From contig JBHLOC010000055.1 of the NCBI GenBank assembly GCA_048940925.1, positions 1 through 27,453 of the forward strand: DNA of 27,453 nucleotides, written 5' to 3'. The notes under the pieces are model-generated. The model had not been told where the DNA came from and ran no database searches. It worked only from the letters and a program-made list of their open reading frames with translations. Of this stretch, positions 1 to 19,010 are shown one piece after another. Both the position numbers and the translations under genes were made by a program. The number at the start of each line of letters is the position of its first letter. The stretch's first letter is position 1. The stretch comes from Promethearchaeota archaeon. Lineage in GTDB: Archaea; Asgardarchaeota; Lokiarchaeia; Sigyniarchaeales; SOKP01.

Positions 1-219
1 AATAGTACAATTATCATCTAAATAATGATTGCAATGTCTACAAGTCTTTGCATCAAGTCGTTCTTTAAGAAATTCAGTGTTAGCTCTATAAGAAGCAGAG
101 TCGGTTAGAATGGGTGGTTTTTCTTCAAGTAGGTGATATTTTGAATGAGATTTACAATAAACGCGCCCATTATTCCTTATTTTAAATTCAGGTTTCATAA
201 TATCAAATGGAATTTTCAT
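1..219 (-). CDS. Partial (runs off window) Cys/His-rich hypothetical protein, probable Zn-binding N-terminus; not in ORF track
   Basis: Manual translation from ATG at 219 (alternative ATG 198) is open to base 1: MKIPFDIMKPEFKIRNNGRVYCKSHSKYH...KTCRHCNHYLDDNCTI. Starts 7 nt after the stop of 227..1033 on the same strand. Confidence 0.75.
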   Translation of the reverse strand, partial: MKIPFDIMKPEFKIRNNGRVYCKSHSKYHLLEEKPPILTDSASYRANTEFLKERLDAKTCRHCNHYLDDNCTI

Positions 220-226
220 ATTATAA

Positions 227-1033
227 TTAATTTTTATTTCTTTTATTTAACTTTTTTAAATCTCTTTCTGTCCAAACTTCTAATCCCTCTAATGCATAAT
301 CATTAAGATGATTTTGAGTTTTCTCTGAATTTAGCTTTTCAAAGTAATTTAGAAGATTCCTACCATTTCTCGTTAAATGATATCCTTTATTATTCCTTAT
401 CAAAGGAATTTTTGAAACTTCAAGTTCAATCATGATTTTACTGAGATTTCTTAATAAATACAGCTTTGATTTCTTTTTTAGCATAGGACTTTTAGTAATA
501 TACTTTCTAAATTGAGAATGCGAATTAATTCTTTTATTATCACATAATATTCGTAAAATCGATATTTTGTAATTTAATTCTTTTCTTAAAATGATAAAAT
601 CATATATTTTTTTAATAATTAAAATAAGTGGAGATACAATAAATAATAGGTACAAGACTGATAAATTAATTGTTAACGATATAGTCTCAATATTGACACT
701 AAATTTTGTCAGTTGAGCCCATAATGAAATATAAAAGCAATATAAAACTAAAATTGAACAAGAAAATATCAATCTTTTTAATGAATATGGTTTTTGAAAA
801 TATTTTAAAAGAGCAAGAAAAGTCATTGATGCTCCAATTAAAGTGGAAAAAATCATTAATTTTTGAAATTTTAAAAAATAATTGCTAAAACCAACTATAC
901 TCTCCGAAAAAAATTCTACTAGACTTGTATATACCATAAAGGGAATAAGGATAGTCATAAATAAATTAAGAAAAATATCAATTGTCGGTGGCAATATTGT
1001 TTTTAAATCCATATTATATTTTTTATTTCTCAT
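227..1033 (-). CDS. Membrane protein (about 4 N-terminal TM helices) with a C-terminal winged-helix-like domain
   Basis: Four hydrophobic segments in the first ~145 aa. C-terminal LIRNNKGYHLTRNGRNLL resembles the wing/terminal helix of wHTH domains. GGTGA lies 6 nt upstream of the ATG. Confidence 0.7.
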   Translation of the reverse strand: MRNKKYNMDLKTILPPTIDIFLNLFMTILIPFMVYTSLVEFFSESIVGFSNYFLKFQKLMIFSTLIGASMTFLALLKYFQKPYSLKRLIFSCSILVLYCFYISLWAQLTKFSVNIETISLTINLSVLYLLFIVSPLILIIKKIYDFIILRKELNYKISILRILCDNKRINSHSQFRKYITKSPMLKKKSKLYLLRNLSKIMIELEVSKIPLIRNNKGYHLTRNGRNLLNYFEKLNSEKTQNHLNDYALEGLEVWTERDLKKLNKRNKN

Positions 1034-1128: not shown

Positions 1129-3507
1129 ATGTGTGCTGAAAAAGTAGAAATACCTTTAATAAAATTCGAAGGGAATGCTTCAGCTCCAATTTTGAGATAT
1201 GATTTACCAAGTCCCTCGTCATATGAGGGGAGAAATTATATTGAACTTGATGTACCTGAAGATTATTTTATAGAAGAACATATTATTGTTCCTCCAGAGT
1301 TTCTCCAGAACAACTCAACGACAGAAACAGAATCATCAAGTTCAATAGATGAATATATTGAGTTTCTTCTAAAAGATTTTTTAGTTACTAACGAGGAAAT
1401 AATACGTGAATATATACAGAATATATCAATTGAACAACTAGAACAGCAAATATACTACTTCACGCTAACACAAAACGAAAGTACTAAAAAAAAGATTTCT
1501 GAGACAATAAGTAAAGCAAAAACAGAAATTCAACAAAGGTCAGCAGCCTTAGAAAATGTCGCCCTAAAAGGAAAAGCAACCGCATCATCTTGTTTAAAGG
1601 GAAATGTTAAACATAAAACAGCACATCTCAACGATGGTTTATTTGGCAATTCTCGTAGTTGGATTGCTGTTGATGTTGATGCATGGGCAAAAATTGAATT
1701 AACTGAACCTAGAGTTATAACCAAAGTTGTGTTTGGAAGAGATGAAAAAGGGGGTGGGAGTGATAGAGATCCTGGAAATGTAGATGTTTATTATTCTGAT
1801 GATGACATAACATATACTATGGCTTCAAACCAAGTAAAAGTAATACAAGGAACGGAGACAACTTACAACGGGAACTTAAAGGCAGGACAAAATGCTGAAT
1901 ATACGTTTACTCCTTTCATGGCAAAATATATTAAATTATATAAAGTAAACAAAAATGGTTGTATTGACGAGCTTGAAATCTACAGTCCCTCTACTTACGG
2001 AGTAGCATTTGAAAAAATAGCTGGTGAAATGGAATTGAAATTAATGTTGTTTAAATACTATATACAATTATCTTTGGAACTTGAAAGAAGAATCCCTTTT
2101 TTTTATAAGACCATGGGAGGAAATTATAAATTAAGGAGTATTAAATGTCCTGATTTTAAACCAAGACTTATATTTATTGAGACTTACAGGTTAACTTCCT
2201 TTCCAGGAGATTATGGTGCAGGGACAGCAATAAAGACACTCTCTCTTCTTCCAAAAGAAGAAACAGAAATTAGCATTAAGACCTGGAAAAAGACGATAGC
2301 TTCTATAAAAGAAGCATCTTCTATATTAGACTCATACACAGAAGATAAGGCTGATGAATTTGAGGATAATGTTCAAAAAGAAAGTTCTAAAACAAATAAA
2401 ATCGACGAATCTGTTGCCTATCATTTGGAAGCGTCTGCAAAAACAACTTTTGGTTGCAGCCCCCCTCCAGGTCTGGGAGGCCCAAAAATTAAGACAGATT
2501 CAACTATCGAATCAGGTGTTAAAGGAAGTACAAATTCTTCTAGAGAATCAATGTCTAGAAATGTTATGAATGCAACCGAAAAACATGCTCAAAAATCTAG
2601 TGCTAAGCGTGAAGTTAACATTGACACGAGTTATGAGAGGACAGAAGATATGGGAGAAGAAGTAGTTATTACAAGAAGGATTGAAAATTTAAATGCCAGC
2701 AGAACATTAAATTTTACTTTTCGTCAGATGAATCAACAGTATCATTCCCTTTTACATCTTATTGATTTAAAACTTGCATTTTATAATGGAAAACCAGGTA
2801 GTATGGAAGAATTCGAATTATCTGAGCTAGCTGAATTAGCTAAAAAATATTTTAAAGATCCAATTGCTGGATTTAAGGAGCTTAAACAGTACATAATCGA
2901 CGAATATACCAATGTATTTGATTACAAGGGAGAACCCCAGGCTCTTATCGAAGAAATCTTTCCAGATATAATAATTAACAGTATCGCTTCTATTAATAGC
3001 AATACTGAAGTTCAAGAGACCATAAATGAAGCGGATATCAATGATTGGGGAGATTTGTTAACCAGTTATTTAAGGATAATTCCTCCTAAAGAGATAAACG
3101 GTAAATTGATTGGGAAACAAGAATATATAATGCAAGAAGCAGATGAAGAAAACGGTCAGCAAAAAGATGTAAGATATCTCGACGGTATTATAATTTCAAA
3201 TAAAGTATTAACCATGAAGACTGATGGTGTGATAGTAGAAGCTTTATTAGGGCAAGTAGATGCTTTAGATCAATTTGCAGTTGAAGCTAGGAAAGAAAAA
3301 ATAAGGGAAGAAAAGTATGAGAACAATCTTAAAAAAGCACATTATAAGAAGATAATGGCAGGTGTCAATATTATAAATGAATTAATCACAGATAAAGAAT
3401 ATGATAAAGCAATTACAGCTTATAGAGAGATTTTTGGTGTACAAGAAGGAATCAAATATCTTGGTGAGACATTTAATCAACGGCTTGAAATTGAAAAAAA
3501 GACTTAA
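1129..3507 (+). CDS. Large hypothetical protein: F5/8 type C (discoidin/galactose-binding-like) domain plus C-terminal Ser/Thr-rich putative beta-pore-forming domain
   Basis: ENVALKGKATASS...AHLNDGLFGNSRSW...WAKIELTEPRVITKVVFG...AKYIKLY...IDELEIY is a typical F5/8C pattern (~1549-1986). The C-terminal half has a long polar alternating-pattern stretch (~2377-2740). No N-terminal signal peptide. Confidence 0.75.
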   Translation: MCAEKVEIPLIKFEGNASAPILRYDLPSPSSYEGRNYIELDVPEDYFIEEHIIVPPEFLQNNSTTETESSSSIDEYIEFLLKDFLVTNEEIIREYIQNISIEQLEQQIYYFTLTQNESTKKKISETISKAKTEIQQRSAALENVALKGKATASSCLKGNVKHKTAHLNDGLFGNSRSWIAVDVDAWAKIELTEPRVITKVVFGRDEKGGGSDRDPGNVDVYYSDDDITYTMASNQVKVIQGTETTYNGNLKAGQNAEYTFTPFMAKYIKLYKVNKNGCIDELEIYSPSTYGVAFEKIAGEMELKLMLFKYYIQLSLELERRIPFFYKTMGGNYKLRSIKCPDFKPRLIFIETYRLTSFPGDYGAGTAIKTLSLLPKEETEISIKTWKKTIASIKEASSILDSYTEDKADEFEDNVQKESSKTNKIDESVAYHLEASAKTTFGCSPPPGLGGPKIKTDSTIESGVKGSTNSSRESMSRNVMNATEKHAQKSSAKREVNIDTSYERTEDMGEEVVITRRIENLNASRTLNFTFRQMNQQYHSLLHLIDLKLAFYNGKPGSMEEFELSELAELAKKYFKDPIAGFKELKQYIIDEYTNVFDYKGEPQALIEEIFPDIIINSIASINSNTEVQETINEADINDWGDLLTSYLRIIPPKEINGKLIGKQEYIMQEADEENGQQKDVRYLDGIIISNKVLTMKTDGVIVEALLGQVDALDQFAVEARKEKIREEKYENNLKKAHYKKIMAGVNIINELITDKEYDKAITAYREIFGVQEGIKYLGETFNQRLEIEKKT

Positions 3508-3537
3508 TTAATATATAAAAAATAAGCATTTAGAGGT

Positions 3538-4386
3538 ATGATAAAAATGTCAGATGACGATGAAAAAGATATTGAAGGAGATATACTAGAAGCACCAACA
3601 AATTCAGAAATCTATACCAACACAGAAAGGGTTATCCCTACTGGAAAAGAAAAAAAATCTGGAAGGACCAAAAAAAAAGCCGATGAAAAAACAGTTAAAG
3701 AGGAGATGCCATGGAGTAATATGTATTTTGAAGAAATCAAATGCCCGTGTGGCGGGTATTTAGACCCAGATCTTGGTCAATGTAGTGAATGTGGAAGAGA
3801 ATATGGTTTTGGAGCAGCAGAAATTGATATTACATTTGATAAATCTGCTATAGCCACTGGATTTGACATTAATATAGAGGATGTTCCAGAACTTGCAAGA
3901 AGAAATGTAAGCTCAATTGCAAAATTCGTTGAATATCATGCATGTAAATATTATGGGAAAGAAGTTAAATTTATCGTGTCTGAAGACCAACAAGCCAACC
4001 CTGATATCGTAGCAGATGTACCGGATTATTAGGATTTTCCTTGTTTTGAAGTAAGGTGTTTTAGAACAGAGAAAAATCCTGGGGTAAAATCTGATCCTGA
4101 GACATATTTTACACAATCTAGTAATCGTAACTTTAAAGGCTTATTACATAAACTCAAAATGGTAAATGGTTATTTTTTACTAGATGCTACCGATTTTCCA
4201 ACATGTAAGGCTTATGAAGTCCCAACTCCTACCGTTGTTGCATGGTTATTTTTAAAAGACGATACCTATAGACTTTCCGCGACAGGCAAAATCAAGACAA
4301 AAGATTTGATAACATTATTGAATAAAACTATTGACAAGGGAATTGTAAAAATAAAAGGTGAACACGCTTTCAAATTCTTACCTTAA
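3538..4386 (+). CDS. Zn-ribbon plus PD-(D/E)xK-like (restriction endonuclease fold) nuclease interrupted by one in-frame TAG at 4030-4032 (readthrough gene or recent pseudogene); joins ORFs 3538..4032 and 4159..4386
   Basis: Both ORFs share a frame, and the 126 nt between them are open: ...NPDIVADVPDY*DFPCFEVRCFRTEKNPGVKSDPETYFTQSSNRNFKGLLHKLKMVNGYFLLD... CPCGG...CSECG ribbon. Helix Glu (KFVEY), PD (4000-4005) and ExR (4048-4056) motifs. Start may be ATG 3547. Confidence 0.7.
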
Positions 4387-4629
4387 AGAATATAGATAAT
4401 AATAGAAAAAGATGTCAATCAGAGTCCACTTACTATATCAGGAATAGTTATTATTCATAGAAAATTTTATATTATAATCAATACTTGAATTTTTTTGTAT
4501 TATAAAAATCCAGTAGTCATAATTATATTTTTGTTAAAAAGAAAAAATATTAGTGTTTATTTCCCTTTTTTCGTGGAAAACTATTGAGAATTAAGAATTT
4601 GGTGAGAAATTATTATCCCTGATGTTCTA

Positions 4630-5721
4630 TTGCAGAGAATCGATGAGGATGAAATTATTTTATATAAATCTCCAAAAATAGTGAATAAAAAAGCGATGAT
4701 TTTTTCAACAGTATTAATGGTGGGAGGTTTAGATACCTTTTTTATCCTATTTTTATATGCTTTAGATGATTTTCTTATAAGTATTCTTACAATAAGTTTA
4801 TTACTTATAGTATTTAATCCAATTATAATACGTTTCAATAATAAAACTGAAAAAAAAATATGTTATTTTCTATTAACAAATATAAATCTCTATGTGTATC
4901 ATTATGAGAAATCTCCTTTACTTTCAGAAAATGTACATTCCTATCCTTTAACTTCTTTTAAAGGTATTGTTTTTCATAAAAGGTTTTTTGATAAAAATTT
5001 TGATTCTGGAACAATTGAATTTGTAACTAATGAATTAATTCCAAAAAAAATTTCAATAAAAAATGTCCCTAATATTCAAAAACTTCAAAATCTTATCGAA
5101 TCTATATTTTTTTACTATGGAAATGTTGAAGAGAGGTTGAGACAAATTTGTAATGAAACTGATTACCAATTTCCTCAAATTTATGATATTTCAATTGTAA
5201 AATTGAAGCAACTAAAAAAGTTAAAAGTAATATACTTGGTTGTATTTATTCTTAATCCTATTTTCTGTTATCTATTAAATTATATAATATCTCTTTTCGT
5301 TAATGAATTAGTTGTTACAGTTGTAATTTATTCCTGCGGCGTAGCTTTTGCTATTATTGTACTTACTCAAATTTTTAGAATGGTAAAAAGAACATCTTAT
5401 AAAAATAATCAATTAGTTTTCAGTGAAAATGAATTTCTGCTTAAAATGAAAAAAACTTCATATAAAATTCCTCTCAATAAAAAAACCACAATCAATTTTG
5501 AATTTAGTAAAGGTCCGCTTGTGAGTCATAGAAATATATTAGAGAATTATGATTTTATTAAAATTAGCAAGTCATATAATTCAAAGGAATTTATCAAATT
5601 TGGACCGTTTACCAAGTTACCTTACATTCTAAACTTCTTATTTAGTTATATCTTAGTATGGAAATCAAACCATGGATATCTTTTATCAAAAGAAGAAATT
5701 ATTAAACTCAATCTGAAGTGA
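4630..5721 (+). CDS. Membrane protein with bacterial-type PH domain(s) (two TM-hairpin + soluble-domain modules)
   Basis: Two TM pairs. YFLLTNINLYVY...HKRFFDKNFDSGTIEFVT...ISIKNVPNIQKLQNLI fits a bPH-like pattern. True start uncertain (possible ATT at 4612). Confidence 0.65.
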   Translation: MQRIDEDEIILYKSPKIVNKKAMIFSTVLMVGGLDTFFILFLYALDDFLISILTISLLLIVFNPIIIRFNNKTEKKICYFLLTNINLYVYHYEKSPLLSENVHSYPLTSFKGIVFHKRFFDKNFDSGTIEFVTNELIPKKISIKNVPNIQKLQNLIESIFFYYGNVEERLRQICNETDYQFPQIYDISIVKLKQLKKLKVIYLVVFILNPIFCYLLNYIISLFVNELVVTVVIYSCGVAFAIIVLTQIFRMVKRTSYKNNQLVFSENEFLLKMKKTSYKIPLNKKTTINFEFSKGPLVSHRNILENYDFIKISKSYNSKEFIKFGPFTKLPYILNFLFSYILVWKSNHGYLLSKEEIIKLNLK

Positions 5722-5786
5722 AATACTACTTTTACTCTTCTTACTTCTAAATTTCGTTATAACTTTCTTAAAGAATACAATTAAAC

Positions 5787-7067
5787 TCAAATTAATTCCT
5801 TACGTAATTCTAATGCTGGTTTATAGTTAGGATCAAGTCTTAAACATCTTGAATTTGCTTCTTTGGCAATTCCAGCCTTACCGCTGCAATAGTATGATTT
5901 AGATAACATGTGCCAAGCCTGAGGATCTTCTGGTTTAATTTCTGTCACATGTAGGAAAATTTCGGAAGCATTTTTATACTTTTTAATGTTAAAATATATC
6001 TCTCCTAAATATTCTAGAATCTCAACATTTTCAGGATCATGATTTAATGCTTTCTTAAACATCTTTAAAGCCTTTTTAGTATATTCTAAAGAATAATAAG
6101 CAATACCTAAATTCTTATATAGATGTGTCAAAACAAAACTTTTTGAAGATCTTACAAAAAAGGTTGATATTAGAGAAAACGAAAATGTAGTCAAAGTTAA
6201 AGCTTTTAATAAAACTTCAATTGCTTCTTCATATTCTCCACATTTAATATATGCTTCTCCTAATTTATTCAATGCTTGGATGTTTAAAGTTAGATTTTTA
6301 GAAGATTCTTCGACTAATGAAATACCTCTATCCCCTGATATTGGAAAATGTTTAATTATAAAATTAAACTCTATTTTCGCTTTTTCAGGCTCTTTATTCT
6401 TCAGATAGAAAGAACCTAGAAGGTAATGAGTAATAACGTTTTTTTCATCAATCTCTAAAGCTTTATCAAATGCATTTTTAGCATCCTCATATTTTTCCAT
6501 AGAAAAATAACTAAATCCTAGAGAATTCCATAATTCAATATCTTGAGAATACTTTTCTAAAGCAATTCTAAGAATATCAGAACTGTGCGATGACCATCCG
6601 ATTTTAGAGAAATGAAATGCAGTACTGAAATTTATATCTATAACTTCTGAAGGGTAATGTGGAGGTAGGTGAATTTCTAAAAATGGTTCATCTTTATTAT
6701 CTTTAAAATAATTTTTGAGAGAAGTTGAGAAAGAAAGTTTTTGTAATTCTTCCTTTTTTTCTAGATGAAATTCCTCTAAATATCCTTTAAAAATCTTTAA
6801 TGCTTGATCAAAACTCTCGAGCCGATCATATGCGAAGAAGAGGTTATTCAAAGCAGGTCTATAGTCTTGCTTTAACTTCAGAACTTTTTCACATAATTGT
6901 ACAGCTTTTTTATATTGACCTTTTAAATTAAAAGCTTCAGCTAATTGATTTAATAACTCAATTGAGTTAGGATTTACTTTTAGCTTTGTATTACATTCCT
7001 CAATAATATTGTTTAATCTTGTATCTCTTGCATTTAAATCTACTATTTTTTTTATGAAATCTGACAT
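5787..7067 (-). CDS. Tetratricopeptide repeat (TPR) protein
   Basis: Multiple 34-aa TPR-like units, e.g. WNSLGFSYFSMEKYEDAKNAFDKALEIDEKN and YKNLGIAYYSLEYTKKALKMFKKALNHDPEN. Confidence 0.9.
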   Translation of the reverse strand: MSDFIKKIVDLNARDTRLNNIIEECNTKLKVNPNSIELLNQLAEAFNLKGQYKKAVQLCEKVLKLKQDYRPALNNLFFAYDRLESFDQALKIFKGYLEEFHLEKKEELQKLSFSTSLKNYFKDNKDEPFLEIHLPPHYPSEVIDINFSTAFHFSKIGWSSHSSDILRIALEKYSQDIELWNSLGFSYFSMEKYEDAKNAFDKALEIDEKNVITHYLLGSFYLKNKEPEKAKIEFNFIIKHFPISGDRGISLVEESSKNLTLNIQALNKLGEAYIKCGEYEEAIEVLLKALTLTTFSFSLISTFFVRSSKSFVLTHLYKNLGIAYYSLEYTKKALKMFKKALNHDPENVEILEYLGEIYFNIKKYKNASEIFLHVTEIKPEDPQAWHMLSKSYYCSGKAGIAKEANSRCLRLDPNYKPALELRKELI

Positions 7068-8105: not shown

Positions 8106-9314
8106 ATGAAACCAATCAAAGAGAAATATCTAATAATTCTGACCTTAGCTTTAGCTTTATTGTCCTTAATAGAAACTCCTTTTATTCTTAATTTAGGAAA
8201 TCGCCAAAAATTTTCGAAATTTAATGACACTATTAAATTGGATAACGAAAATTTGAAATTATCAATAGTATCAGGAAGGATTCATATTGATAATAATTGG
8301 TCTGATGCGAAGAGTGCAGGGATCTGTACAGGAGGAGGTACTAAATCCGATCCTTATGTGATAGAAGATTTAATAATAGATGGGAAAGGTTCGGGAAGTT
8401 GCATCTTTATTAATAATTCTGATGTATACTTTAGGATCGAAAATTGTATGGTTTACAATTCGGGAACAGAATGGAATGGTGCAGGAATATCCTTGAATCA
8501 TGTTAATAATGGAATCTTAACAAATAATGATTGTTCAAATAACGAAATAGCCGGAATATTTCTACACAATAGCAATAATACCATCATCTCAGATAACGCA
8601 GCAAATGAAAATAAACACGGCATATATTTATGGTATAATTGTTCCGATAACATTATTTCAGGAAACACCGCAAATTATAATCAGGAAATGGGGATAATAG
8701 TATATTACAGTAATAATAACGATATTTCGAGTAACACTATAAACAATAACGTTCATGGGATATGGATGTGGCATTGTAATAAAACCAATATCTTGGGAAA
8801 CACTGCAATTAATAACGCAAATTATGGGATAGGTTTAAGCGAGGGTAAAAATCACAATGTCTCGGGAAACACTGCAAATGGTAATACAGATACAGGGATA
8901 TCTTTATTTCAGAGTAACAATATTTCTATCTCAGGGAATACAGCAAATGGTAATGATTTTACAGGGATATCTTTTTATCAGAGTAACAATATCACTGTTT
9001 CGGGAAACATTGCAAACAAAAATAGGGAAAATGGGATATATCTAACATATCATTCTAACAATAATACCATCTCGAGAAATACCTTTAACGATAATCATTT
9101 TGGTATCTATTTAGATGGCAAAAGTAATTACAATATAGTATCGGAAAATAAACTAATTGGAAATGATAAATGCATCAAAGAAGAAAATTGTGAGGGTAAT
9201 ATCTTCGAAAACAATGAATGTGTCAAAAGAATTATCCTTGGATATAATCTATGTGTCTTACTTGGCATCATATTCGTTGTAGTAATCTTTACAAGTAAAA
9301 AAATAAAGAAATAA
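8106..9314 (+). CDS. Cell-surface right-handed parallel beta-helix (NosD-like) protein with Loki-CTERM-like C-terminal anchor
   Basis: N-terminal signal/TM, GGGTKSDPYVIEDLIIDG cap motif, repeated GIxL..S.NN.ISGN.AN units, and C-terminal ILGYNLCVLLGIIFVVVIFTSKKIKK. Confidence 0.9.
   Translation: MKPIKEKYLIILTLALALLSLIETPFILNLGNRQKFSKFNDTIKLDNENLKLSIVSGRIHIDNNWSDAKSAGICTGGGTKSDPYVIEDLIIDGKGSGSCIFINNSDVYFRIENCMVYNSGTEWNGAGISLNHVNNGILTNNDCSNNEIAGIFLHNSNNTIISDNAANENKHGIYLWYNCSDNIISGNTANYNQEMGIIVYYSNNNDISSNTINNNVHGIWMWHCNKTNILGNTAINNANYGIGLSEGKNHNVSGNTANGNTDTGISLFQSNNISISGNTANGNDFTGISFYQSNNITVSGNIANKNRENGIYLTYHSNNNTISRNTFNDNHFGIYLDGKSNYNIVSENKLIGNDKCIKEENCEGNIFENNECVKRIILGYNLCVLLGIIFVVVIFTSKKIKK
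8856..9015 (+). repeat. Intragenic 69-nt (23-aa) imperfect tandem repeat of beta-helix rungs
   Basis: GCAAATGGTAAT...ACAGGGATATCTTT...TCAGAGTAACAATAT recurs at 8874 and 8943. Confidence 0.75.
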
Positions 9315-12250: not shown

Positions 12251-13153
12251 TTATTGCCTTATGAAATAATACATTTTTCCTTCATGTTTCTTAGATTGAA
12301 TTTTCCCATTGAATAAAAGCCTGTTTAATACACCTTCGATATTATTCTGTAAATATTCCAACATTTCAGAATTCTCGATATCTTTCTCTAACCTCTCTAG
12401 TATAAATTGAGATGTAAATGCTTTGTCCGCATTTGTCTTAAAATAATTAATCACAATTACATCAAGCTCCTCAATTATTTTTTTTGTCTCATTTCGTTTT
12501 TCCTCTGATCTATCGGGTTCTCTTTTATATTTCTCTAGATCTGCATCAAGATAATGTCTTACTGTGATCATATCCTCCCCTAATTCTTCTGCTATTTTTC
12601 GAAAACTCTTTCCTTGACGATATTGGATTTCTACCCATTTTTTTTTATCCTCTAAGGTGCTTCCATATAAAATTTTCATTTTCTTTGACTTTACCTCCCT
12701 CAATTGGTTCTCGTATAACAAGAGATACTTTTCATCTTGCTTTCTACTGGCGGGGGTCCTCCATTTCTTAGATTGGCTCTTTTCTCGTATTTTTGTTATG
12801 GAGTTTTCAGCAGATTTTTCAATTTCTTCTAACTTTTCCAATGCCTCTTTTCTTTTTATATTATCGCTTCCACAATTACTGCATACTTTTTCTTCTAATC
12901 TTATTGTTGCTCCACATTCAACACAATGGTGGATTGTCTTTTCGCTTAAGAGAGTATTTCTCTTCTCCACAATAACAAAAATAACTACCAATACACAGAA
13001 GATAATTATAGATATTATAGCGGGAATAATAAAAATAAGGCTCCTAGGAGCATCAAGTAATATCACTAAATCGCTCACTCCCCACATCATAATGAAAAAA
13101 CTAACTATACACAACACAATACCCTTCAATATAGATTTATATTCTGATCTCAT
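12251..13153 (-). CDS. Membrane-anchored protein: 2 TM + double Zn ribbon + HTH + C-terminal winged helix
   Basis: Two N-terminal TM helices; CVECG...CSNCG; GKSFRKIAEELGEDMITVRHYL (HTH); AFTSQFILERL...VLNRLLFNGKIQSKKHEGKMYYF (wHTH-like). Confidence 0.75.
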   Translation of the reverse strand: MRSEYKSILKGIVLCIVSFFIMMWGVSDLVILLDAPRSLIFIIPAIISIIIFCVLVVIFVIVEKRNTLLSEKTIHHCVECGATIRLEEKVCSNCGSDNIKRKEALEKLEEIEKSAENSITKIREKSQSKKWRTPASRKQDEKYLLLYENQLREVKSKKMKILYGSTLEDKKKWVEIQYRQGKSFRKIAEELGEDMITVRHYLDADLEKYKREPDRSEEKRNETKKIIEELDVIVINYFKTNADKAFTSQFILERLEKDIENSEMLEYLQNNIEGVLNRLLFNGKIQSKKHEGKMYYFIRQ

Positions 13154-13238
13154 TTAATATTCTTCCTCATTTTTCTTGATTTTATTAACGTGTTCTAAGA
13201 TAATATTTTAACAAGAAGATACTCTATCCCTCTTAACA

Positions 13239-13658
13239 TTAACCTCTCCATTGAGCCTCAATAATAGACAAGGCAACTTCTTTAGCAATCCTTCTTAAAT
13301 TTTCTGAAGAAATGTAACTTAACTCAACATCTTTAGTCGTAGAAAATATCACAATTAATTCGACAACCTTGACTTCGCTCAAATAGAGCGTTATGAGATA
13401 CCCATCTGAACCCTTTATATATAACGCTTCGAAATCACCTTTTTTCATCTCAATTACCGCTCTCTTAGCTAAGGAAAAAAATGCAGCTCCCATCGCGGCT
13501 ACCCATGTTTCATCTGCTCCGTTAGGTAAAACTGAAGCGATCGGTAATCCATCCACAGAAAAAATTGCTACGACCCTCACATTTGGATCTAATGGAGCTC
13601 TATAAAATTTCCTCTCTTTTCTTTTTGCACTATCAGCAGAATAAGGATCTATCATCAA
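13239..13658 (-). CDS. Roadblock/LC7 (MglB-like) domain protein
   Basis: VAIFSVDGLPIASVLP...DETWVAAMGAAFFSLAKRAVIEMKKGDFEALYIKGSDGYL is the characteristic Roadblock pattern. Confidence 0.9.
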   Translation of the reverse strand: MMIDPYSADSAKRKERKFYRAPLDPNVRVVAIFSVDGLPIASVLPNGADETWVAAMGAAFFSLAKRAVIEMKKGDFEALYIKGSDGYLITLYLSEVKVVELIVIFSTTKDVELSYISSENLRRIAKEVALSIIEAQWRG

Positions 13659-13716
13659 CTTTTCTCATCATAGAATAACATTTTGGATTGAAGTCCTATA
13701 CTTTATCTTCTTTTGC

Positions 13717-14079
13717 TCAATCTTTTAAAGTCTTAGCTTTTTCAGCTTGGTTTTGTAATGAATCTTCGAGATTTTTGATTTGTTCATCTTTTAATTTAAG
13801 AAGATTAATTTTAGTTGCCAATTGCATTTTTGTAAAATAGTCCATTTTAAATTGAATCTCATTGATTGAAAATGCCATAATCATTCCTATCTTCTTAAAA
13901 TAATCTAATACGAACGGTTTTAATGCGGGAATTCCGTCATTTTTAGAGATTTCTAACAGATCAGCACTAAAAATCTCAGGAAGATATTTTCTCTGAATCG
14001 TTATTTTATCGACTCCCTGTTCATTAAATAGTGCTTCGATTTTTTTAATTGCTTTTTCTATTGAGTCAACTAAATTCAT
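13717..14079 (-). CDS. Hypothetical protein with C-terminal coiled coil
   Basis: 120-aa ORF with a plausible upstream GTGAG motif, co-oriented with neighbours. No family recognised. Confidence 0.65.
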   Translation of the reverse strand: MNLVDSIEKAIKKIEALFNEQGVDKITIQRKYLPEIFSADLLEISKNDGIPALKPFVLDYFKKIGMIMAFSINEIQFKMDYFTKMQLATKINLLKLKDEQIKNLEDSLQNQAEKAKTLKD

Positions 14080-15122: not shown

Positions 15123-17195
15123 ATGAGAATTAAGTGTAAAAAAGAAGTAATTATATTAACTTTAGGAATATTGATCGCGGTTGTGGGCATCACCAATTAT
15201 ATTATCTTCAATGATCAAAATGGAACTTTCGAGAATAAAGACGAGAATAAATTAAAAAGTTTAAAGAAATCTGCGGGTTATTTCGAATCATTCATACACA
15301 TTGATGGTAGTATTCTAGATAATTGGTCAAATACTGCACTAAATTACGATTGGTGTAGTGGTAATGGTTCATGGAGTAATCCTTATATTATTGAAAATGT
15401 TACTATTGATGCCATTAGTTCCCCTACAGGGCAAGGAATTTTTATAGATAATTCCAAAGTTGATTTTTTTATCATTAAAAACTGTAAGATCTTTAATGCT
15501 TTCGCAGACAATGGGATCTTATTGAGAAATACAGATAACGGAACCTTATTAAATAATACATGTTCTACCAATTCTGAAGGAATCCAGTTAAATAATAACT
15601 GTAATAACAATACTATCTCGGAAAACATCGTTAATACTCATACAGGAGACGGTATATATTTAGTTCAGAATAACGATAATAACACCATCTTTGGAAATAC
15701 AGTGTATATTAGTGGTGGTTCTGGGATATATTTAAATAATCTCTGTAATGGTAATAATATCTCGGGAAACACAGTACATAGTAATGGTGGTTCGGGGATA
15801 GATTTAGATAATGGTTGTACTGGTAATATTATCTCGGGAAACACGGCATATGATAATAGTGGGTCGGGGATAGATTTAGATAATGGCTGTGATAGTAATA
15901 ATATCTCAGGAAACACGGTATATAGTAATAGCGATTCCGGAATATATTTAACGGGATTATGTAATAATAACACTATTGCGGGAAACAACGCAAGTGACAA
16001 CCTTTATGGAATATATTTAGAAAATAATTGTAACGATAACACTGTCTCAGGAAACATCGCAAACGATAATGTAGATGCCGGGATATATTTAATATCTTGC
16101 GATAATAACATCATATGGGGAAATACAATAGGCACATATAATCAAAATTATGGGATATACATTGATGCTGGTTCTGATAATAATACCATTATCAAAAATG
16201 TTATGCATTATAACTACATATATGGGATGTTTATAACTAGTTCTTGTTATAGTAATCTCATTTACTTAAATGAATTTAAAAATCAATTCAACGCGAGGGA
16301 CGATGGAAATAATCAATGGGATAATGGAACGATAGGAAATTATTGGGATGATTATGAAGGTGTAGATGCTGATGATAATGGTATTGGAGATACTCCCTAT
16401 GATGTGCCCCCTGCAGGAGGGAGTGTGGATAATTTCCCAATCTGGGAAGATGGAATTGACTTAGGTTCTTTGTATGTGGAAGTTTTCGATCAAATCTTTA
16501 CGGAAGAAAGCTTTAACATTACTTTCTTCATTCATAATTCAACTAATTTTGGTATTGAATTCGCATCAGTTCAAGTATGGTGGAATGGAGTGAATGTATC
16601 TGCTGATGTTCAAAATTTTGGTAATGGATATTATTTTATCTCATTAGACCCAATAACTGTAGCTCAAGGGGAAGATCCCATCCTGCTAAAAATAATAATC
16701 TCTGCATCTGGATATGCGGATAAATACTTTGAAATATATATCCTAGTCCATCCAAGTGATTTAGTAAAGGACACATTAGAATTTGAAATGATTGACCAAT
16801 CGCTCTCAAAGGAACAATTTAATATAACGTTCTTTATTTACAATACGACTGGTGATGGAATTGTTTTTGCAACATTCAAAATCTGGTGGAATGGCATAGA
16901 TGTGTCTGCTGATGTTCAGAATCTTGGTAATGGATATTACTTTATCTCCTTAGACCCAATAACTGTAACTCAAGGGGAAGATCCCATCCTGCTAAAAATG
17001 ATAATTTCTGCATCTGGATATGAAGATAAACAGTTTGAAACCTATCTCGCCGTAGATCCTGATACCTTAGAAAAAGAAATAGGGAAAGGGGCTGAAGGAA
17101 TTCCTCTTGTGATAATCCTTATCGCAATCATATTGACAGCAGCGTTAATAGTAGCGGTGACAGCAACAGTAGTCCTGTTGCGTAAAAGGAAATGA
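15123..17195 (+). CDS. Cell-surface NosD-like parallel beta-helix protein with two duplicated C-terminal beta-sandwich-like domains and a TM anchor
   Basis: N-terminal TM; GNGSWSNPYIIENVTID cap; GIYL..C.NN.ISGN repeats; GNYWDDY.G.D.DDNGIGDTPY NosD C-terminal motif; C-terminal TM + RKRK. Confidence 0.9.
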   Translation: MRIKCKKEVIILTLGILIAVVGITNYIIFNDQNGTFENKDENKLKSLKKSAGYFESFIHIDGSILDNWSNTALNYDWCSGNGSWSNPYIIENVTIDAISSPTGQGIFIDNSKVDFFIIKNCKIFNAFADNGILLRNTDNGTLLNNTCSTNSEGIQLNNNCNNNTISENIVNTHTGDGIYLVQNNDNNTIFGNTVYISGGSGIYLNNLCNGNNISGNTVHSNGGSGIDLDNGCTGNIISGNTAYDNSGSGIDLDNGCDSNNISGNTVYSNSDSGIYLTGLCNNNTIAGNNASDNLYGIYLENNCNDNTVSGNIANDNVDAGIYLISCDNNIIWGNTIGTYNQNYGIYIDAGSDNNTIIKNVMHYNYIYGMFITSSCYSNLIYLNEFKNQFNARDDGNNQWDNGTIGNYWDDYEGVDADDNGIGDTPYDVPPAGGSVDNFPIWEDGIDLGSLYVEVFDQIFTEESFNITFFIHNSTNFGIEFASVQVWWNGVNVSADVQNFGNGYYFISLDPITVAQGEDPILLKIIISASGYADKYFEIYILVHPSDLVKDTLEFEMIDQSLSKEQFNITFFIYNTTGDGIVFATFKIWWNGIDVSADVQNLGNGYYFISLDPITVTQGEDPILLKMIISASGYEDKQFETYLAVDPDTLEKEIGKGAEGIPLVIILIAIILTAALIVAVTATVVLLRKRK
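15680..15990 (+). repeat. Intragenic 72-nt (24-aa) imperfect tandem repeat
   Basis: CTC(G/A)GGAAACAC recurs at 15761, 15833 and 15905; unit NNISGNTVHSNGGSGIDLDNGCTG. Confidence 0.8.
16470..17066 (+). repeat. Tandem duplication of a ~102-aa domain (306-nt offset)
   Basis: TGGTGGAATGG...TCTGCTGATGTTC...GGGGAAGATCCCATCCTGCTAAAAAT at 16578 and 16884; near-identical WWNG.DVSADVQN.GNGYYFISLDPITV.QGEDPILLK.IISASGY. Confidence 0.9.
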
Positions 17196-17675: not shown

Positions 17676-19010
17676 TTGGAGCAGAAAAATATGGAACAAG
17701 AACCAACTAAAAAAAATTTCAGACATTATCTTTACTTTTTGTTTGGACAACAATTTTCAATGTTAGGATCCTTAATCGTTGGATTTGTCATCACCTGGTG
17801 GATCACTATAGAAACGGGAAGTGCTGTTTATCTTTCTATATCTGTCTTTTTAATGTTTCTTCCACAGATTGTAATTCCCCTTTTTTCAGGCGTAATTGCA
17901 GATAGATGGAATAAAAAAGCCATTATAGCAATTTCAGATGCTATGCAAGCATTAGTAACATTTGTACTGTATGCATTTTTTCTCATGGGTTTTCAAAATA
18001 TATGGTTAATTTTGGCAATAAATACATGTAGGGCAGCATTATATGCGTTTCAATATCCTGCAGTTCAATCTCTTGTCCCTGTGTTGGTTCCAAAAGATAA
18101 TCTTAGCCGGGTTAATGGTGTGAATTTTATATTTTCTGGCGTAATTTTTAGTATAGGACCAGTAATTGCTGCAACACTCTTAGCATTTTTCCCTATTACA
18201 CAGATTTTCCTTATTGATATTATAACATTTTTTATTGCACTTATCCCATTGTTGCTAATAAAAATACCTTCTGTCCGGAATATAACTGAAGAAGCCACAG
18301 AAAAGTCACTCTTTAAGGATTTCAAAACAGGGCTATTAACAATCAAAATGATTCCGGGCTTATTTGCGATGATTGCGTTAGCAATGATATGGAACTTTAT
18401 TAATAGACCCTGGGCAGTACTATTACCTTACTTTATTAGATATACACATGACGGTACTGCTTTTGATCTTGCCCTTTTAATGACAGTGTCTCAAATTGGA
18501 AATATTGTTGGTTCCTTGATTACTTCAATTAAGAAAACGTGGAATCATAAAATAAAAATAAATCTAATTGGTGCTTCATTATTTTTTGTATGTCAAGCTT
18601 TTGCTATTATTGCACCCAAGGGGAATTTCATACTCATGATGATTTTTCTTTTTCCTGCGTGGATGACATTTCCAATCACAGTTTCTACCTACTTAGCAAT
18701 TCTACAGAATGTAGTTTCAAAAGATAAGGTAGGTAGAATAATGTCAATTGACCATATGATTTCGATGGCAATTGCTCCCATTGGAGCACTTATAGCAGGA
18801 CCATTAGCAGAACTTATTGGAATAATCAATTTATTTCTTATTTGCGCTATTATTGGAATGATTTTTCCTATTTTCTTGTGGTTTTTTACAAAAATCAAAC
18901 AACTAGAAATCATTGATAGAGAAATAATGGTGAAATCTGAAGAAGAGAAAGAAATGGAAGAATTTATAGAAACCCCCGAAATTGTCCAAGCTACTGAACC
19001 TATAGAATAG
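17676..19010 (+). CDS. MFS transporter, MefA/DHA3-like drug:H+ antiporter
   Basis: About 12 TM; GQQFSMLGS..V.F...WWIT..TGS; MFS motif A GVIADRWNKK; LVPKDNLSRVNG. Start may be ATG 17691. Confidence 0.92.
   Translation: MEQKNMEQEPTKKNFRHYLYFLFGQQFSMLGSLIVGFVITWWITIETGSAVYLSISVFLMFLPQIVIPLFSGVIADRWNKKAIIAISDAMQALVTFVLYAFFLMGFQNIWLILAINTCRAALYAFQYPAVQSLVPVLVPKDNLSRVNGVNFIFSGVIFSIGPVIAATLLAFFPITQIFLIDIITFFIALIPLLLIKIPSVRNITEEATEKSLFKDFKTGLLTIKMIPGLFAMIALAMIWNFINRPWAVLLPYFIRYTHDGTAFDLALLMTVSQIGNIVGSLITSIKKTWNHKIKINLIGASLFFVCQAFAIIAPKGNFILMMIFLFPAWMTFPITVSTYLAILQNVVSKDKVGRIMSIDHMISMAIAPIGALIAGPLAELIGIINLFLICAIIGMIFPIFLWFFTKIKQLEIIDREIMVKSEEEKEMEEFIETPEIVQATEPIE

Follow-up and report, generated by a model that had tools for sequence, protein, structure and literature searches.

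Binary AB toxins, such as anthrax PA with LF/EF, clostridial C2/iota and Bacillus Vip1/Vip2, are made of a binding and pore-forming component and a separately encoded enzyme. In polymorphic toxins, the toxin is the C-terminal domain of a conserved protein, accompanied by a secretion apparatus and a tightly linked immunity gene. Bacterial gasdermin-protease operons and other membrane-disrupting abortive-infection operons combine a membrane-active protein without a signal peptide with an enzyme. In this study, two adjacent genes of a Promethearchaeota archaeon were analyzed, gene 1 (the carrier) and gene 2 (the partner), which lie on a stretch of 27,453 nucleotides (nt) of contig JBHLOC010000055.1 (GenBank assembly GCA_048940925.1, positions 1 to 27,453 of the forward strand), called the window in the following. 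The architecture of a carrier with an interchangeable enzyme is well supported among the relatives of gene 1, and it seems to us an even chance that genes 1 and 2 are the local copy of a widespread two-gene conflict module of this kind.

Like the binary AB toxins, the module joins a binding and pore component, putative here, to a separately encoded enzyme; many bacterial partners have a common N-terminal element, and one of 61 partners matches ATLF. In contrast to these toxins, the module lacks signal peptides, its partners are far more varied, and it is found in archaea and among free-living bacteria of soil and water; gene 1 has no PA14 or Binary_toxB match in Pfam. With polymorphic toxins and the MIX/RIX cargo effectors of type VI secretion systems it shares a toxin repertoire (Endonuclea_NS_2, TseH and toxin type 44), which occurs in the partners of relatives rather than in gene 2 of the window, together with partner exchange between close carriers, a patchy distribution and several copies per genome. 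However, the toxin-like domain of the module is a separate downstream gene (66 loci), and neither an associated secretion apparatus nor a tightly linked immunity gene accompanies it. The gasdermin-protease and related abortive-infection operons resemble the module in encoding a signal-less membrane-active candidate and an enzyme in a two-gene operon, whereas structural searches with the carrier gave no gasdermin fold match and the partners do not belong to one activating protease family.

The 490-amino-acid (aa) C-terminal core of gene 1 (aa ~300-792) defines a large family, for which an exhaustive HMMER search returned 1,727 representatives at 50% identity with E ≤ 0.001, 521 of them with E below 1e-30. 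Members are found in Promethearchaeota, Thorarchaeota, Odinarchaeota, Nitrososphaera, haloarchaea, Bacillus, Paenibacillus, Cohnella, Streptomyces, cyanobacteria, Bacteroidota and others, and all of them are annotated as hypothetical. No Pfam, NCBIfam, PADLOC or PHROGs model spans the carrier core. PHROGs gave one marginal match to gene 1 outside the core (E 0.00097), and a sequence search of the PDB gave one marginal match to FBP32 (E 0.074, aa 132-205). The original prediction had spoken of a possible undescribed archaeal module. The family is not confined to archaea, and the majority of its members are bacterial. Full-text literature searches found no description of the carrier family or its architecture; the ABP systems known from Gram-positives comprise three genes and are not the same system (PMC13460014). 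Within the Asgard archaea, the family is present in 11 of 400 genomes, and in 6 of 54 genomes of the window's genus, and no close orthologue of the window copy of gene 1 was found in either set. This distribution is patchy, like that of accessory conflict genes. A phage origin of the carrier was considered and rejected, as the family is absent from 50,697 phage records and has one match among 2.9 million viral contigs (IMG/VR).

The genes downstream of family members were surveyed in 80 carrier loci, one genome per species. In 66 of the 80, the family gene is followed by a co-oriented open reading frame (ORF) of at least 150 aa. The two genes are tightly coupled, with a median gap of 9.5 nt; the gap is at most 50 nt in 51 of the 66 loci, and in 24 the genes overlap. 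The partners are mostly unrelated to one another, since 37 of 67 are singletons by BLAST at 1e-5. A Pfam scan covered 61 partners and recognised a minority of them. TseH, Endonuclea_NS_2, GH5 cellulase and Beta-lactamase2 were each found in two partners, whereas Peptidase_M23, Peptidase_M15_4, HH_signal (the hedgehog N-terminal domain), OmpA, R-HINP1I (R.HinP1I), ATLF and Peptidase_M10 were each found in one. Judged by these assignments, most of the recognised partners appear to be hydrolases of kinds that are used as toxins. The recurring or swapped enzymatic partners that the original prediction had envisaged are therefore seen, as a tightly coupled downstream gene that differs between loci.

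Diverse partners are also found at the archaeal loci. The partner of the Asgard locus L014 is a nuclease of the R.HinP1I type, with a match above the Pfam cut-off, and that of the archaeal locus L038 is an Endonuclea_NS_2 protein. The genome of the window itself holds a second copy of the module (L006, G000:C2:1962-4726), in which 11 nt separate a 600-aa carrier that lacks the F5/8C insert from a downstream partner of 316 aa with the metzincin-type HExxHxxGxxH motif HEYGHIIGLPHD. A pair that is 87%/82% identical to this copy, again with an HExxHxxGxxH partner, occurs in another Promethearchaeota assembly (L010). The partner at locus L008 is a zinc-ribbon protein, and the remaining Asgard partners are unrecognisable. 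Closely related carriers have, on the evidence of their sequences, exchanged partners: the Asgard carriers of L008 and L011 share 85% protein and 87% DNA identity, yet their partners are unrelated, and the DNA similarity stops about 63 nt before the carrier stop codon. The L011 contig, also from Promethearchaeota, carries two family members in opposite orientation, at 1-746 (-) and 3072-5855 (+); the truncated one of them shares 50% identity with gene 1 in aa 1-277, a range that takes in the F5/8C-like insert. In Sinorhizobium meliloti plasmid pAK76 (L092:4278-6941), the gene after a distant family member encodes a protein with the NCBI annotation 'polymorphic toxin type 44 domain'. The plasmid is conjugative, and the pair lies between its relaxase and its type IV secretion genes.

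At their N-terminus, many bacterial partners have a motif resembling x-A/P-L-x-N-x-x-K-V-L. In a four-fold cross-validation, 418 ORFs from the same loci served as controls; their 95th percentile was exceeded by 19 of 58 held-out partners, against about 3 expected by chance. Window gene 2 and most Asgard partners have long acidic leaders in common.

The carrier is predicted to consist of a short N-terminal strand, an interchangeable binding domain (F5/8C-like in the window), a beta-rich core with an amphipathic hairpin, and a helical tail (Table 1). Its first 50 residues are conserved in the family alignment (A1) and share 70% identity with the paralogue encoded on contig C2; within them, aa 30-40 are modelled as a strand with a predicted local distance difference test score (pLDDT) above 90. 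The F5/8C-type domain that had been read from gene 1 was borne out despite a weak signal. The Pfam match to F5_F8_type_C_2 (PF22633; E 0.003, aa 168-270) reaches 18.6 bits and thus stays below the 27.8-bit cut-off, and the stretch matches at least eight repeats of P0054, a protein of 4,383 aa rich in HYR, Ig-like and cadherin-like domains, with BLASTP E values down to 3e-13. On sequence grounds, it is a real domain. The inserts between the N-terminal segment and the core vary within the family and include LamG, HHH_3, Big-like, sialidase-type carbohydrate-binding, jacalin/tectonin-type and F5/8C-like domains; most are lectin- or Ig-like, and HHH_3 occurs in 5 of 75 carriers.

Table 1. Features of the two-gene locus in window coordinates.
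Feature	Position	Strand	Product	Remarks
Gene 1 (carrier)	1129-3507	+	792 aa	Open frame from ATG after GGAGGTGA ribosome-binding site
Conserved N-terminal segment of gene 1, aa 1-50	1129-1278	+		Pattern APIL.Y..P.P.SY.G.NYIEL
F5/8C-like (galactose-binding-like) insert, aa ~138-289	1540-1995	+		Pfam PF22633 and repeat matches
Conserved family core, aa 316-720	2074-3288	+		Core-only model: three beta-strands of 25-28 residues plus smaller strands, with helical inserts
Amphipathic Ser/Thr/Ala/Gly-rich hairpin, aa ~430-470	2416-2538	+		Alternation in the 123-member alignment
C-terminal helical hairpin, aa 715-781	3271-3471	+		Modelled helices 715-754 and 758-781
Gene 2 (partner)	3538-4386	+	282 aa if read through	Single frame with one stop
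Charged, poorly conserved leader of gene 2, aa 1-60	3538-3717	+		13% identity to P0001 over the first 41 residues
Zinc-ribbon motif CPC...CSEC	3742-3792	+		Cysteines read from the sequence
Candidate PD-(D/E)xK-like nuclease domain, aa ~95-282	3820-4383	+		Stop lies between the PD and E-x-R elements
In-frame TAG splitting gene 2	4030-4032	+		P0001 has glutamate at this position
Upstream gene	227-1033	-		Hydrophobic protein

The hairpin is conserved among 123 family members, which bears out the earlier claim of a Ser/Thr-rich alternating segment in gene 1. It is composed of two strands of about 10 residues, in which small-hydrophobic and polar columns alternate, with a Gly/Trp turn between them. 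In the outward strand, Y/W, V/A, A, A, A, W alternate with H, E, E/S, S, S, and the residues at the base and the tip are aromatic; a G-W-G turn follows, and then the return strand, where A, V, G/A, V alternate with S/K. Gene 1 of the window has a Pro/Gly-rich insertion at the hairpin tip. By its residue pattern, this segment looks like a membrane-spanning beta-hairpin.

The full-length model of gene 1 has a pLDDT of 73 and a predicted template modelling score (pTM) of 0.70, and owing to a shallow alignment in that region its F5/8C-like insert is modelled poorly (pLDDT below 50). The core-only model, built from 123 sequences, reached a pLDDT of 82 and a pTM of 0.80. Aerolysin-type beta-pore-forming toxins (aerolysin, ETX/MTX2, Tpp/Toxin_10, monalysin, parasporin-2, Dln1/LIP) resemble the carrier in their very long beta-strands, in a lectin-like binding domain beside the core and in a Ser/Thr-rich amphipathic hairpin with aromatic ends. 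The carrier differs from them in that its hairpin is flanked by long helices, and in its large helical inserts, helical tail and lack of a signal peptide; a Pfam scan at E ≤ 1 found no aerolysin or ETX/MTX2 match in gene 1 (PF01117, PF03318 or related). The nearest named language-model cluster to gene 1 is aerolysin (0.75). Weak structural matches recur with Cry35/Tpp, proaerolysin, monalysin, Dln1, LIP, parasporin-2, CPE, lysenin, Sip and Mpp75 at Z 3-5, and these scores lie within the background range (Dln1 Z 4.8 and LIP Z 4.3; parasporin-2, CPE, monalysin and Tpp80 Z 3.1-3.8). The modelled likeness to aerolysin-type toxins is hence a lead, not a finding. A wide structural search with the whole gene 1 model returned mainly generic helical-hairpin matches. 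The carrier core has a single significant structural match, an uncharacterised 642-aa protein of Yasminevirus, a giant virus (BFVD A0A5K0U6Q4; Foldseek E 2.4e-7, 18% identity).

If genes 1 and 2 do represent a conflict module, the carrier would bind a target surface through its variable domain, oligomerise and insert its hairpin into a membrane; by this insertion the partner enzyme would be released or delivered, as in a binary toxin whose cargo can be exchanged. Such a mechanism supposes that carrier and partner associate physically, that a pore is formed, that the proteins are exported and that there is a target. The partner would be the interchangeable enzyme, represented in the window by a charged leader, a zinc ribbon and a nuclease-like domain. 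The earlier idea of a binary toxin or suicide module is upheld as far as a carrier with swapped, toxin-like partners is concerned, whereas pore, binding and target are inferred. In its most far-reaching form, the proposal is that of a delivery system for interchangeable enzymes that works without a secretion apparatus and is common to Asgard archaea, other archaea and many bacterial phyla, with a previously unseen carrier fold, swappable lectin-like binding, a membrane hairpin, and some partners recognised by their N-terminal peptide. We regard this form as tentative and hold it with some doubt.

Gene 2 begins 30 nt after the stop codon of gene 1 on the same strand (start at 3538, with an alternative ATG at 3547), so that the two co-oriented genes, divergent from an upstream membrane gene, are arranged as had been described. 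Protein searches of 5.8 billion clusters gave one homologue of gene 2, a protein of 290 aa (P0001) with 72% identity, and a six-frame search of 400 Asgard genomes gave no homologue, only short matches at chance level. P0001 is uninterrupted across the position of the TAG, and the two ORFs of gene 2 were therefore formerly one gene. Gene 2 and P0001 agree in 74% of residues before the stop and in 73% after it, so any decay of gene 2 is recent; in the leader, their identity falls sharply. P0001 has a CYEC...CSVC zinc ribbon with weak Pfam matches to DUF7575 and DZR; a profile search pointed weakly to the zinc ribbon of eS27. In gene 2, the first zinc knuckle (3742-3750) is CPC versus CYEC in P0001, one residue being lost. 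This loss and the premature stop may together mark an early decay of gene 2.

The original prediction had read gene 2 through its TAG, for which no mechanism was found. Pyrrolysine read-through was rejected: TAG also terminates the window genes ending at 19010, 23173 and 25964, and in a genome rated 100% complete PylS stayed below the cut-off and PylD had no match. Since TAG is an ordinary stop in window genes and pyrrolysine machinery was not found, this copy of gene 2 is broken, recently mutated or mis-assembled, and probably defective. As a consequence of the premature stop, the window copy is probably non-functional as a pair.

Of the three parts that had been assigned to gene 2, the charged leader and the zinc ribbon (CxC...CxxC) stand, while the assignment of a PD-(D/E)xK nuclease is weak. 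PADLOC gave a weak REase_II match (E 0.0034, aa 169-238), the language-model neighbours are DpnI, VRR_NUC and Endonuc_Holl at 0.81-0.86, and the PD...E-x-R pattern read from the sequence straddles the stop. No nuclease match was obtained in Pfam or PDB sequence searches. Type II restriction endonucleases of the R.HinP1I and DpnI type are the known enzymes that these weak REase_II/DpnI-like signals recall, and the partner at L014 is a true match to the R.HinP1I family. In contrast to Type II enzymes, gene 2 has a leader and a zinc ribbon, lies behind a carrier gene and has no adjacent DNA methyltransferase. The absence of such a gene agrees with what had been stated before: no DNA methyltransferase family occurs among window ORFs of at least 90 aa, and the two methyltransferases at 20.6 and 26 kb are of the Methyltransf_11/25 type. 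Gene 2 has no similarity to the other Asgard partners by BLASTP or profile comparison. The pair of gene 1 and gene 2 was seen at no other locus, the genomic context of P0001, which scans of metagenomes and of viral sequences did not recover, lying outside the data covered.

A number of observations weigh against interpreting the locus as a conflict module. The carrier has no significant match to a solved structure, as judged by Foldseek (best E: whole model 0.11, core 0.23); the structural aligner gave a best Z of 4.6 for the core against 48,161 representative chains, and the best VIA Z overall was 4.6-4.8. Structure prediction and Foldseek comparison of gene 1 have thus yielded a confident core model but no significant match, and the fold of a beta-pore former, as proposed originally, is not established, given that aerolysin-type toxins score at Z 3-5 only. 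The hairpin is modelled at low confidence between long helices, unlike in aerolysin. Neither N-terminus shows a hydrophobic signal-peptide core when read from the sequence, as had been noted before. No linked immunity gene was found, which would be unusual were the partners active toxins in the producer; among ORFs of 70 aa or more, tight linkage of a third gene occurs in only 4 of 62 loci. Among the partners, the largest group (n = 12), all from Cohnella and Paenibacillus, is a conserved protein without an assigned function, and nitroreductase and 2'-5' RNA ligase-like partners, which are not obviously toxic, also occur. In the window itself, the frame of gene 2 is interrupted and its C-terminal part only weakly nuclease-like, and the N-terminal motif of bacterial partners was undetected by cross-validation in gene 2 and in most Asgard partners.

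As neither protein has a signal peptide and no immunity gene is linked, an intracellular suicide or defence role has to be considered. The variable domain of the carrier would sense an invader, for example DNA via HHH_3, and the carrier would permeabilise the cell's own membrane while the enzyme degrades cellular or viral macromolecules. Self-killing needs no immunity gene, and the DNA-binding HHH_3 inserts, the nuclease and protease partners, the patchy distribution and the possible presence of several copies per genome would all fit. However, most inserts are lectin- or Ig-like rather than nucleic-acid sensors, and many partners act on extracellular substrates, among them the peptidoglycan hydrolases, the GH5 cellulase and a partner with OmpA-type wall binding. 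PADLOC, moreover, found no match to the carrier besides its one weak REase match to gene 2, and the window neighbours are not defence genes. On balance, we consider an intracellular role unlikely. It is more improbable still that the module serves self-lysis, with a carrier that perforates the membrane of the producer so that a signal-less, wall- or envelope-degrading partner escapes, like a holin with an endolysin. The wall-degrading partners without signal peptides (TseH, M23, M15_4, HH_signal-type and Beta-lactamase2), the tight two-gene operon structure and the amphipathic hairpin agree with such a function, but the nuclease partners and the variable lectin-like inserts are left unaccounted for by it, and the family has no match in the phage records and a single one among the viral contigs. 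Asgard archaea are not known to have peptidoglycan, which also counts against it.

The two genes could also have no functional link, gene 1 being a surface or structural protein and gene 2 the decaying remnant of a solitary restriction-type nuclease. The broken and nearly orphan state of gene 2, the residue missing from its zinc knuckle, and the fact that binding between carrier and partner is presumed speak for this explanation. What makes it hardly probable is the adjacency of carrier and partner in 66 loci across many phyla, with overlapping stop and start codons; in addition, the near-equal identities on both sides of the stop in gene 2 place any decay in the recent past.

The window is part of a low-GC archaeal chromosome. 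The 'Asgard-like' host of the original prediction is reasonable, as the nearest relatives of gene 1 are in Promethearchaeota assemblies and the window contains a Roadblock/LC7 gene. The two-gene module is flanked by a 28-nt direct repeat at 1061-1088 and 4453-4480 (82% identical, containing TTTTATATTA), whose copies could be a pair of similar archaeal promoter elements or could resemble each other by chance in AT-rich DNA. Directly past gene 2, at 4387-4629, there is no ORF; the gene at 4630-5721 (+) encodes a multi-pass membrane protein of 363 aa, in which aa 128-190 match the archaeal Argonaute PAZ domain below threshold (E 4.5e-4). Two NosD/right-handed beta-helix proteins are encoded at 8106-9314 and 15123-17195 (+), and a relative of the former (37% identity) lies upstream of the carrier at locus L008. 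At 12251-14079 (-), the Roadblock/LC7 domain protein (13239-13658) stands beside a zinc-ribbon protein and a 120-aa protein without a Pfam match. A grouping of this kind is typical of Asgard small-GTPase regulatory neighbourhoods.

The carrier family is a good candidate for experimental study, and since it is also present in culturable strains of Bacillus, Paenibacillus, Streptomyces and haloarchaea, it is directly testable. Whatever its mechanism, an unnamed family of this size, with a confident model and no clear structural relative, merits description. If the module acts as proposed, microbes would have in it a novel and very common means of turning hydrolytic enzymes on other cells or on themselves. 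With its two genes, the system would be both simple and modular, and it would be present in the archaeal lineage closest to eukaryotes, adding a class of weapon to the sparse list of known archaeal antagonism systems.

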